A DNA stretch of 32,000 nt. Origin: Patescibacteria group bacterium. Its GTDB lineage: Bacteria; Patescibacteriota; Patescibacteriia; 2-01-FULL-39-33. The position numbers and the translations under genes were made by a program. Under the pieces are notes generated by a model that saw only the letters and a program-made list of their open reading frames with translations, was not told where the DNA came from and ran no database searches. Shown one piece after another: positions 17,015 through 19,439 of the stretch. The stretch's first letter is position 1; the number at the start of each line of letters is the position of its first letter. Where the stretch lies: the NCBI GenBank assembly GCA_041649575.1, contig JBAZMW010000004.1, positions 90,001 through 122,000 on the forward strand. The letters are read 5' to 3'.

Positions 17015-17100
17015 AAAATCCCCGTCTGCCCGTTTTGGTTCTTAAGGTCAGTTGAAGCGAGGCGAGCAGAGGGGATTTTGTGTTTTTGTTTTTATTTTTT
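17015..17100 (+). terminator. Long-stem terminator
   Basis: AAAATCCCC(G)TCTGC pairs with GCAGAGGGGATTTT over 14 bp, followed by TGTGTTTTTGTTTTTATTTTTTT. It abuts the stop codon of the convergent EndoQ gene. Confidence 0.55.
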
Positions 17101-18344
17101 TAGAGCAACTTTTTTTGAACAGTTTTTACGGCAGCGGTCTTGATGGCTATTTGGCCGTAGATACCGTCGTAGCCGGGAGTGATTTCGACTCGGCCGAGTC
17201 GGACGCTGATAATTCTTTCGGCGATCTCCGGCCGGGCGATTTTTTTTAACTGCTCTTCGGTTAAGTCGATCAGAATTTCGAATTCACAATATTTTTTGAT
17301 CAGATTAAAATATTCGGTTTGGACTTTTTTTGAATTTTTGCCAACCCCGAAGCTGTCGGCGATAATTTCTTGTAACGGTATTAGACTTTTGTAGGGAATA
17401 TTTTTGGGAGAGTCGCTGTTTTTTTGATCGGCCAGCTCGTTAACTCGGTGAAGCACCCCTAAGGTCAGGGGTTTTTTACAAAGAGGACAGAGGTTGTTAT
17501 TTTTTTTGCTTACTGCCGGGCTGGAGAGGTAGCGGCAAGCGGCGTGGCCGTCGAAATGATATTTGCCTTCTTCGGGAAAAAATTCAATAGTGTAGAGGAA
17601 TTTGTTTTTATCTTTCTCTTTGATGAGGCGGCTAATTTCCTGGTAGCTCAATTGGCCGTCAGTTATTTCAAACACATTGGCCTCGCGGCCAAGATTGGCT
17701 GGCGAATGGGCATCGGAATTGGAGAGCAAGGTAATTCTATCCAGGGCCGATAATTGCCAATTCATTTTTGGATCGGAAGACAAGCCGGTTTCAATGGCGT
17801 GGATATAAGGAGTGATTTCTTCGAAGCATTCAGCCAGAGAATCAAAACCAGACTTGGAACCAAAAACAGCAAACCAAGGAGTCCAGGCATGAGCGGGAAC
17901 AACCAAACTCTGTTGGTTGATGTTTAAAATAATTTTAGCCAGCTCTTTGGCCGACAGGCCAATAATCGGCCGGCCGTCGGATTTAATATTAAAGCCCCGT
18001 TTTTCAAAGTCGGCAATAATTTTTTCAACGGTCGTGATATCGGGAACCAAAAGGCAGACATGGATTCTTCTGGTTTTGCCGCCCTGCGAGTAGATACAGC
18101 TGATTTCCGTACCCAAGACAAATCTGACAAGACTGTCGCTGTCTTTTAGACGATAAAGCCCCGGCTCGGCTTCGATCAGTTTGTCTTTTATTTCTTTGAA
18201 CCACTTGGGATGAGTGAAATCTCCGGTGCTGACAATCTTTATGCCCTTATATTGGCACCAAGAGTCAATATTTTCCAAGGTCAAGTCACGCGAGCAACCT
18301 CGGGAATAGGCGGAATGGATATGTAAGTCGGCAATGACGCGCAT
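17100..18344 (-). CDS. Endonuclease Q-like PHP-domain nuclease with a C-terminal Zn finger
   Basis: Matches include N-terminal DLHIHSAYSRGCS, ...PAHAWTPWFAVFG..., LLSNSDAHSPANLGREANVF, GKYHFDGHAACRY...CPLCKKPLTLGVLHRVNELAD and PGYDGIYGQI. These fit my recollection of Pyrococcus/Bacillus EndoQ. Confidence 0.75.
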   Translation of the reverse strand: MRVIADLHIHSAYSRGCSRDLTLENIDSWCQYKGIKIVSTGDFTHPKWFKEIKDKLIEAEPGLYRLKDSDSLVRFVLGTEISCIYSQGGKTRRIHVCLLVPDITTVEKIIADFEKRGFNIKSDGRPIIGLSAKELAKIILNINQQSLVVPAHAWTPWFAVFGSKSGFDSLAECFEEITPYIHAIETGLSSDPKMNWQLSALDRITLLSNSDAHSPANLGREANVFEITDGQLSYQEISRLIKEKDKNKFLYTIEFFPEEGKYHFDGHAACRYLSSPAVSKKNNNLCPLCKKPLTLGVLHRVNELADQKNSDSPKNIPYKSLIPLQEIIADSFGVGKNSKKVQTEYFNLIKKYCEFEILIDLTEEQLKKIARPEIAERIISVRLGRVEITPGYDGIYGQIAIKTAAVKTVQKKLL

Positions 18345-18414: not shown

Positions 18415-18810
18415 CAAAAAGAAAGCGCCACATGTTACAAACAGAGGTGACGCGGTTTGGAGAGTGTCAAGAGTATTTAGCCTTATGAGGACTAATCAAG
18501 GGGCGACCCTGGGTTAGTTTCTCACATCTTCAGATGACTAAAGAGCGGTCATCTTACTCGTGAAGCTGCTGCGGGAGCTTTGTCGGGGAGAGGTCCCAAC
18601 TCAATTTGTAACTCCCGTGAAACGGTCGCACTCGTTCCGATTAACAGCCTCCGCGACACCGTTTTTGGTCTATCATGCGCGTATTTCCCAAAAACCGGTT
18701 TGGGCTCTGCCAGCTTCAGAAGAATCGGGCGCTCCTCTCTTGTCCGTGATCCTTCTTATACCATTACGGGGGGCATCGATTTTTCTTTTCTCGTCTCTCG
18801 AAACTCTCCT
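18415..18810 (-). ncRNA. Unclassified structured RNA candidate, about 395 nt
   Basis: The segment is GC-rich and has no ORF longer than 11 codons on this strand. It has its own promoter at 18817-18845 and an intrinsic terminator at 18416-18453. The 5' and 3' ends form a 13/15-bp helix (18795-18809 with 18459-18473), and there are many internal hairpins. Confidence 0.5.
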
Positions 18811-18816
18811 ATCACT

Positions 18817-18845
18817 AGTATAGACTCATTAGGCAGAAAAGTCAA
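18817..18845 (-). promoter_or_regulatory. Promoter: TTGACT, 17-nt spacer, TATACT, for the ncRNA candidate
   Basis: The -35 is at 18840-18845 and the -10 at 18817-18822 on the minus strand. Confidence 0.5.
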
Positions 18846-18955
18846 TGTTATTTTTTTGGCAAAAAAAAGAAGGCGGCTTCACCACAATTGTGATGACTCC
18901 ACCAACTAAGTCGGATCGGCCGACGGACAACTCGGGTTCAGCAGGTCACAGTCGT

Positions 18956-19090
18956 CTACACGACGATACCAGCTCTGCCACCCTGCACCTGGATAACGGT
19001 CAGACCATAGAGGCAGAAGAAATAGAAGCCAGCTTGATCTAGCTGGCAATCCTCTCGGCCGCATTTCTTACACTTACACTTCTGCTCCAT
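18956..19090 (-). CDS. 44-aa Cys-rich mini-protein (MEQKCKCKKCGREDCQLDQAGFYFFCLYGLTVIQVQGGRAGIVV)
   Basis: SD GAAGGAGA ends 7 nt before the ATG. It starts 16 nt after the upstream ORF's stop. It is not in the ORF track because it is shorter than 60 aa. Confidence 0.45.
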   Translation of the reverse strand: MEQKCKCKKCGREDCQLDQAGFYFFCLYGLTVIQVQGGRAGIVV

Positions 19091-19106
19091 ACCCTTTCTC
19101 CTTCAG

Positions 19107-19319
19107 TTAGGCCCGCACATCAAGCAGCCGGCCGGAGTGATTTCCCGTAGAGATCAGTCGTGGCGATCTCGGAGCCGGGCTTCTGTTGATAGACTTCAGG
19201 TAACAAGAATGACACAATAGCCCTCTCCGGTCGAAGATCACCTTGGTTTGTCCGCAGTGACTACAAGGGGCGACTAGCGGCCTTGATTCGGCACATGAAA
19301 TACTGACACGAGAGATCAT
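19107..19319 (-). CDS. 70-aa zinc-ribbon-like mini-protein (CxxC-x13-CxxC)
   Basis: SD AGGAGGG ends 7 nt before the ATG at 19319. The ORF reads MISRVSISCAESRPLVAPCSHCGQTKVIFDRRGLLCHSCYLKSINRSPAPRSPRLISTGNHSGRLLDVRA. The track's longer 101-aa version starts upstream of the SD. Confidence 0.5.
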   Translation of the reverse strand: MISRVSISCAESRPLVAPCSHCGQTKVIFDRRGLLCHSCYLKSINRSPAPRSPRLISTGNHSGRLLDVRA

Positions 19320-19394
19320 GACCCTTCCCTCCTGACGCTCAAAAATGTTCAAGCTAGTATTATAAATAGCACAATTATTTATGGTTGTAAAGAT

Positions 19395-19421
19395 AAATAA
19401 AAATCCCGCCAAAAGGCGGGA
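19395..19421 (-). terminator. rRNA operon terminator
   Basis: TCCCGCC-TTTT-GGCGGGA hairpin followed on the minus strand by TTTTTATTTAT, just downstream of the 5S rRNA. Confidence 0.7.
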
Positions 19422-19439
19422 CTAGTTTTTAAATCCAGG

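Follow-up and report, generated by a model that had tools for sequence, protein, structure and literature searches.

The window, meaning the whole 32,000-nt stretch of DNA analysed here (G000:C4:90001-122000), comes from a Patescibacteria genome (G000) of 920 kb (0.92 Mb) that is 98% complete; relatives in the same family carry Patescibacteria names, one of them Ca. Buchananbacteria. The minus strand bears, in order, 23S rRNA, 5S rRNA, the rRNA terminator, two small ORFs (ORF-A and ORF-B), a terminator, a structured RNA and an EndoQ/PHP-like gene. The features are as follows, with the basis of each in brackets:

22728-19602, minus strand: 23S rRNA (rRNA annotation)
19549-19441, minus strand: 5S rRNA (rRNA annotation)
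19395-19423, minus strand: intrinsic terminator of the 23S-5S unit, the upstream boundary (terminator scan)
19359-19364, minus strand: TATAAT -10 box within AT-rich sequence (-35 box absent at 16-18 nt)
19339-19350, minus strand: degenerate copy of a boxA-like leader motif (similarity to motifs at homologue loci)
19328-19333, minus strand: Shine-Dalgarno (SD) site of ORF-A (pairs with the genome's own anti-SD, -12.6 kcal/mol)
19107-19319, minus strand: ORF-A, 70 aa, predicted C4 treble-clef zinc finger with a basic, low-confidence tail (five syntenic homologues, selection, model)
19098-19109, minus strand: junction of the ORF-A stop, 3 nt and the SD of gene 2 (kept in G014, G024 and G033)
18956-19090, minus strand: ORF-B, a 44-aa orphan with five Cys, probably translated (codon score)
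18861-18903, minus strand: intrinsic terminator closing the two-gene unit (stem and T-run)
18456-18845, minus strand: structured RNA including its own -35/-10 promoter at 18845-18817 (promoter scan, folding, a homologue in G009)
17100-18344, minus strand: EndoQ/PHP-like gene, the downstream anchor of a variable slot (TIGR00375-like, below the family cut-off)

These boundaries support a self-contained two-gene unit. Both ORFs lie exactly at the coordinates given in a preliminary description of this DNA, directly after the rRNA terminator on the minus strand, and the hairpin and T-run with which that description ended the unit were recovered (stem 18903-18872, T-run to 18861, z=-3.1). A TATAAT does precede the ORFs, but at 19364-19359 and not at 19362-19357. 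We infer that the unit promoter lies at this box, which the promoter scan did not pick up and which lacks a -35 element at the usual distance; full -35/-10 promoters stand at the corresponding position in the loci of the ORF-A homologues described below. Two SD-led ORFs of at least 40 aa occurred in 7 of 5000 shuffles of the unit, a region chosen post hoc. The unit folds no better than its shuffles (z=-1.08), and the island has nothing at gathering score in Rfam. A leader-trailer closing helix for the unit was rejected, as 60% of shuffles were as good, and so was the idea that the island or the neighbouring RNA is a degenerate RNase P or tmRNA, both of which are present elsewhere in the genome. 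Searches at the DNA level against 61 and 401 genomes matched only terminator, promoter or other short fragments. Among sequencing runs there was one full match to the region, with no differences, which may be the source sample; none of the runs containing the region is listed as RNA. Two further runs had no reads across the ORFs, which says nothing on whether these are absent there.

Several features of the surroundings are recorded here in their own right. The 16S rRNA gene is unlinked from 23S-5S and lies elsewhere on contig C4, at about 46-48 kb; it retains the anti-SD, and both rRNA leaders (16S and 23S-5S) bear a boxA-like motif. An 18-nt repeat (T-run, GCC, A-run) links each terminator to the next promoter (18423-18406 and 18868-18851, minus strand), and other genomes of the class contain short stretches that match it. 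Beyond the 23S gene, a radical SAM gene (24371-23118) carries UPF0004, of the tRNA methylthiotransferase type.

ORF-A carries the motif CxxC-x13-CxxC (C19, C22, C36 and C39) and has a pI of 10.3; its tail is indeed rich in R, S and P, as had been claimed (13 of 28 residues). A six-frame search of 401 genomes returned a single match (E=2e-5), in another genus of the family (G018), where 23S and 5S are followed by a different CxxC ORF, the ORF-A homologue, a terminator and the PHP gene. Anchoring on the PHP gene across 16 family loci yielded four further homologues (G014, G024, G031 and G033), and a family-wide profile search found no additional strong member. The resulting alignment has six rows, the window protein and five homologues, three of which are closely related and non-independent. 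M1, C19, C22, G23, D30, C36 and C39 are invariant in all six sequences, and four of the homologues are already called as proteins in public collections. Homologues within genus g15 give dN/dS values of 0.13, 0.20 and 0.43; core identity by codon position is 0.65/0.63/0.38, and the window sequence compared with its homologues over the core has pN of 0.29-0.44 vs pS of 0.67-0.88. The codon usage of ORF-A is not above shuffles under a codon model of SD-led genes, so that its coding status rests on the homologues. Taken together, the sequence comparisons show that ORF-A is a real gene under purifying selection, occupying the same slot before the EndoQ/PHP-like gene. The preliminary description had proposed frame conservation as the test between a coding and a wholly RNA island; frame and cysteines are preserved in the five syntenic homologues, with purifying selection, and the island is thus not all RNA.

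Conservation extends beyond the zinc core. The C-terminal pentapeptide of the window protein resembles that of the g15 homologues, and the stop-plus-SD junction together with a similar pentapeptide occurs in G014, G024 and G033, upstream of a lipoprotein gene. ORF-A leads its unit in five of six loci and is last in its unit in G018. An ORF-A of 101 aa extended to a TTG was rejected: the start would fall inside the rRNA terminator and lacks an SD, and the homologues begin at the ATG position. In G018, the ORF-A homologue is preceded by a different 71-aa protein (L076:632-844, minus strand), which is led by a strong SD, contains three CxxC motifs and has no PHROG match.

By sequence search, members of the ORF-A family are so far known from a single CPR family in the genomes examined. 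Word-index protein searches found nothing for it, the ESM Atlas gave no usable match, viral contigs held no relatives, and in an exhaustive phmmer search the only matches were long repeat proteins with multiple CxxC motifs. The profile also made weak matches: one in G032 (E=9e-4), others in G241 and G360 that were rejected as repeated CxxC modules of long proteins, and one in G017 that is its rpsN. Long proteins with tandem CxxCG-x11/13-CxxC modules (G241, G360 and P0001-P0005) resemble the ORF-A core, and judging from their sequences such proteins could be a source of single-finger genes such as ORF-A.

The preliminary description had labelled ORF-A a zinc ribbon. Its cysteine pattern stands, but the ribbon fold does not: in the model the second CxxC (C36, C39) opens a helix, the first pair sits in a CxxCG knuckle, and matches to zinc-ribbon Pfam families were all below cut-off. 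The predicted elements are a strand at 15-18, the knuckle, a strand at 25-30, a short strand at 35-36 and a helix at 37-44, with pLDDT of 81-90 over residues 11-40, a mean of 67 and a low tail (from the six-row alignment). [quoted passage not shown] Because the order of elements in ORF-A matches this definition, and the family shares the knuckle, the loop, the strand(s), the helix and the 2+2 ligand arrangement, we predict a treble-clef zinc finger with a uS14-like core. No Pfam, NCBIfam or PHROG family is significant. Foldseek with the model gave nothing at E<=0.001, with uS14 chains among the weak rows; a NinG-like neighbour has an rmsd of 1.0 A at a non-significant E=0.011, and the weak structural neighbours are zinc fingers too. 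A homodimer prediction for the core with zinc scored 0.02.

Among known proteins the closest in sequence is type-Z uS14 (PF00253, PRK08061), the best PDB match (E=0.002). The two share the CxxCG...CxxC core, similar spacing and basic character, and a profile-profile comparison covers 30 columns (E=3e-4, probability 39%). However, the similarity is limited to the cysteine core, where the ORF-A spacer is 13 rather than 12 residues (a one-residue insertion); the N-terminal basic arm and the C-terminal G-x-I-P-G, invariant in the true uS14 of this bacterial family, are missing, and ORF-A lies outside any ribosomal protein operon. The ORF-A family has no match to PF00253, and one homologue reaches 14.4 bits with PRK08061, for which the cut-off is 77. 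A true rpsN is found in 33 of 34 family genomes, including G000 and all five homologue genomes, and ORF-A as a replacement for rpsN was rejected since the normal gene is kept alongside. On these sequence criteria ORF-A is not uS14.

Other small zinc proteins offer looser likenesses. VIA-align places CsfB (Gin) of Bacillus subtilis (PDB 5N7Y, PMC5890618) best against the model (Z=2.6, rmsd 5.1 A over 45 residues), and CsfB is, as ORF-A is predicted to be, a stand-alone microprotein with a single C4 treble clef. CsfB is a homodimeric sporulation regulator that acts on class III sigma factors (PMC5890618). The Z score is too low to establish kinship, there is no sequence, Pfam or NCBIfam match, and on present evidence ORF-A is not assigned to the CsfB family. 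The haloarchaeal C(P)XCG micro-proteins, such as Brz (PMC2253796, PMC11241148), consist of one domain, are no longer than about 70 aa, carry two motifs of the CxxC type and are often overlooked in annotation; Brz regulates the gene downstream of it. ORF-A is similar in size and in its number of CxxC pairs; its second motif differs in having no following Gly and in opening a helix in the model. ORF-A is plausibly a zinc-binding, nucleic-acid-binding protein.

For ORF-B, the codon score under a model trained on the SD-led genes of G000 is 0.243 bits/codon, reached in 1 of 1000 shuffles (p=0.001) and close to the in-frame training mean of 0.238, and an SD-led ORF of at least 40 aa appeared in 21 of 5000 shuffles of its region, again chosen post hoc. 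From the codon score we consider it likely that ORF-B is translated. No homologue was found in the family genomes, among 5.8 billion proteins or in G000 itself, and the ESM Atlas gave only leads under 0.9; a weak match in G008 was rejected, as it contains six stops. The hydrophobic segment noted earlier is present, but a membrane-active reading of it is not upheld, the 19-residue Kyte-Doolittle mean peaking at 1.19 with no transmembrane helix. The stretch is predicted, at low confidence, as beta strands. We propose on this model that ORF-B may be a soluble, possibly metal-binding beta-hairpin orphan without an obligate tie to ORF-A.

What follows ORF-A changes from locus to locus. ORF-B occurs at none of the five homologue loci, where the next feature is a lipoprotein-like gene of 326-369 aa (G014, G024 and G033), a 71-aa ORF (G031) or a terminator (G018), and in G010 and G020 the slot before the PHP gene is empty. 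Gene 2 is thus shown to be exchangeable: relatives have a lipoprotein there, a different ORF or no gene at all, and ORF-B fills the position at present in this lineage. The lipoprotein-like ORF (L065, L066 and L068 in G033, G014 and G024) is His/Tyr-rich with a GC of 0.55-0.57, and a 60-aa two-helix membrane ORF follows it in the same three genomes.

The neighbouring RNA (18810-18456, minus strand, about 355 nt) folds with z=-2.75 against shuffles. Its own -35/-10 promoter points to separate transcription, and it is independent of the ORFs. A homologue with its own promoter and closing helix lies in the corresponding slot of G009 (L061/L104, G009:C10, about 14.9-15.35 kb), preceded by an SD-led, unrelated orphan of 125 aa; that locus has no ORF-A. 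When 34 family genomes were searched with a two-motif pattern of the RNA, G000 and G009 alone matched, and the five ORF-A homologue loci have no room for an RNA of about 355 nt before the PHP gene. The preliminary description had suggested that the ORFs act with this RNA; ORF-A and the RNA are found together only in G000 among 16 loci, which speaks against it. Since gene 2 differs between loci and the RNA and ORF-A occur separately, the slot between 23S-5S and the EndoQ/PHP-like gene is one in which cassettes land independently of each other. Positions 18671-18821 recur, with 4 differences, in a contig from wastewater.

In both RNAs, words from domain I of 23S rRNA (about positions 215-445) follow one another in the correct order, apparently closed by a helix-4-like stem. 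The colinear-word score of the window RNA is equalled in 2 of 1000 shuffles against Bacillus 23S and in 20 of 1000 against the 23S of G000; that of the G009 RNA is weaker (15-369 of 1000). A profile built from 16 domain I sequences of CPR bacteria gave the G009 RNA 14.5 bits vs a shuffle maximum of 0.8, and the window RNA 6.5 bits vs 8.8. The word and profile tests were both chosen after the motifs had been seen. Plain local alignment between the RNA and the 23S of G000 gave nothing significant, and the RNA is not reported by the Rfam LSU model. The word order and the profile are suggestive of a possible stand-alone mimic of 23S rRNA domain I.

The translation signals of the two ORFs belong to a broader pattern. 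The preliminary description drew attention to matched, strong ribosome-binding sites (19333-19317 for ORF-A and 19103-19088 for ORF-B). These are present, with pairing to the genome's own anti-SD of -12.6 and -9.5 kcal/mol compared with +0.4 kcal/mol for the downstream PHP gene; they are features of a genome-wide class. Both ORFs were also correctly described as GC-rich (0.54 and 0.51, genome 0.44). Among the long ORFs of G000, 55 of 636 are SD-led, with a median GC of 0.564 vs 0.44, and a GC of at least 0.52 is found in 47 of these 55 vs 17 of the 581 others (p about 3e-48). A boxA-like leader motif precedes 6 of 55 SD-led and 6 of 581 other long ORFs (p=2e-4). Across all contigs there are about 110 SD-led, GC-rich ORFs, mostly orphans and mostly unrecognisable by eye. 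Both ORFs are thereby shown to fall within a class of orphan genes, SD-led and GC-rich, that forms a minority in this SD-poor genome. Some Parcubacteria lose the anti-SD (PMC9297842), unlike G000, which keeps it. The literature on SD use, GC content and leaderless initiation in Patescibacteria that we covered, mostly outside the subscription journals, gave no account of two gene classes.

The leader of the G033 homologue contains a 12-mer identical to the boxA-like motif in the G000 23S leader, and similar motifs occur in the G014, G024 and G031 leaders; the window copy is degenerate. G000 has NusB, and no Rho (PF07497) was found in this 98%-complete genome. The ORF-A homologues have a GC of 0.40-0.45; the gene is therefore not always GC-rich, which argues that in ORF-A it arose or was kept in place and is not a mark of recent import.

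We propose that the unit is probably a self-contained accessory operon in a variable slot, in which ORF-A is an inherited, family-restricted gene encoding a non-catalytic binder and gene 2 is exchangeable. Transcription would start after the TATAAT box and run through the boxA-like leader, with NusB available, to the hairpin. Ribosomes would load on ORF-A in an SD-dependent manner, and initiation at gene 2 would be translationally coupled to ORF-A. In the model, each ORF-A would bind one zinc ion through C19 and C22 in the knuckle and C36 and C39 in the first helix turn, and the protein may work alone as a small binding protein. Nucleic acid is the likeliest ligand because of the pI of 10.3 and the uS14-like core; judged solely on charge and fold analogy, a nucleic acid, probably RNA, has about an even chance, a protein target bound in the manner of CsfB or YacG is a lesser possibility, and a role mainly in cis or of another kind is less likely still.

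The preliminary description listed a toxin/antitoxin-like role among the possibilities. An obligate pairing of the two ORFs, whether toxin-antitoxin-like or as a peptide plus partner, would fit their separation by 16 nt, their single terminator and their richness in Cys, as well as a common 6-mer in their SD-to-ATG spacers, a sharing seen in 0.5% of SD-led gene pairs. The SD of ORF-B, however, is part of a junction inherited with the ORF-A 3' end, ORF-B is at 0 of 5 homologue loci and in no database searched, and each of the five has another gene 2 or none; nor is there a transmembrane helix or any toxin-like match for the unit in Pfam, PHROGs or NCBIfam. We therefore regard an obligate pair, and with it the toxin-antitoxin or membrane-peptide reading, as very unlikely. 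The further suggestion of a precursor peptide fares no better: as the description itself observed, no modifying enzyme is adjacent, and no RiPP-type modifying enzyme or transporter lies next to the unit or at the homologue loci. It would be extremely improbable for the whole 18.4-19.4 kb island to be non-coding RNA with ORFs arising by chance. Its GC-richness and the absence of a codon signal of its own in ORF-A would suit that reading, which is already refuted for ORF-A by frame-preserving homologues with a synonymous excess and is at odds with the codon signal of ORF-B, the lack of any Rfam match at gathering score and a folding score unlike that of the neighbouring RNA.

Two readings assign ORF-A a more specific role. 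A uS14-derived, rRNA-binding factor that partners the ribosome or the neighbouring 23S-like RNA would account for best PDB sequence matches that are nearly all type-Z uS14, for the 30-column profile match, for a homologue adjoining 5S rRNA in G018 as in G000, and for the boxA-like leaders and colinear domain I words. Yet the match is to the cysteine core without the basic arm or G-x-I-P-G, normal rpsN is kept in G000 and the five homologue genomes, no relative combines ORF-A with the RNA, and four of the five homologues are away from rRNA within the loci examined. The target of uS14 is 16S rRNA, not 23S domain I, which also counts against this reading, and we consider it unlikely. A mainly cis-acting ORF-A, serving as a short, well-loaded leader cistron that brings ribosomes to the following cargo gene, would explain its position at the head of the unit in five of six loci and a conserved C-terminal pentapeptide and stop-SD junction that lie far from the zinc core and outlast changes of cargo. 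A purely cis role would have no need of four Cys, a Gly and an Asp held invariant under purifying selection, and the G018 homologue is the last gene of its unit; we judge this reading distinctly unlikely.

Under the preferred reading, an inherited binder with an exchangeable second gene, the unit is a fairly ordinary accessory cassette, as zinc-finger genes of this small, lineage-restricted sort are common and the two ORFs do not stay paired in relatives. ORF-A is a verified, easily missed microprotein family, new as a small family and known as a kind of protein. It is a gene inherited in place that is GC-rich and SD-led here, whereas its homologues are at genome-average GC, and this contrast argues that the SD/GC class of G000 is not simply a recent import from GC-rich donors. 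The SD-led, GC-rich class and the 23S-domain-I-like RNA merit more attention than the two ORFs. More speculatively, and in our estimate improbably, ORF-A could be an RNA-binding microprotein of uS14-like type, acting on ribosomes or SD-led mRNAs as a component of a second Patescibacteria gene-expression programme. If so, some hundred scattered, GC-rich, SD-led genes, often with boxA leaders, would be switched on apart from the SD-poor housekeeping genome, with host contact as an example of a trigger.

Within the SD-led class, resemblances by eye include thymidylate kinase, thymidylate synthase and DnaA (C3:12097-15364), dUTPase (C4:88817) and MreB (C4:44475). A second two-gene, SD-led unit of CxxC microproteins (53 and 90 aa) lies at G000:C2:74941-75416 on the plus strand, and more SD-led CxxC microproteins are found at C2:169801, C2:185071 and C4:8915.
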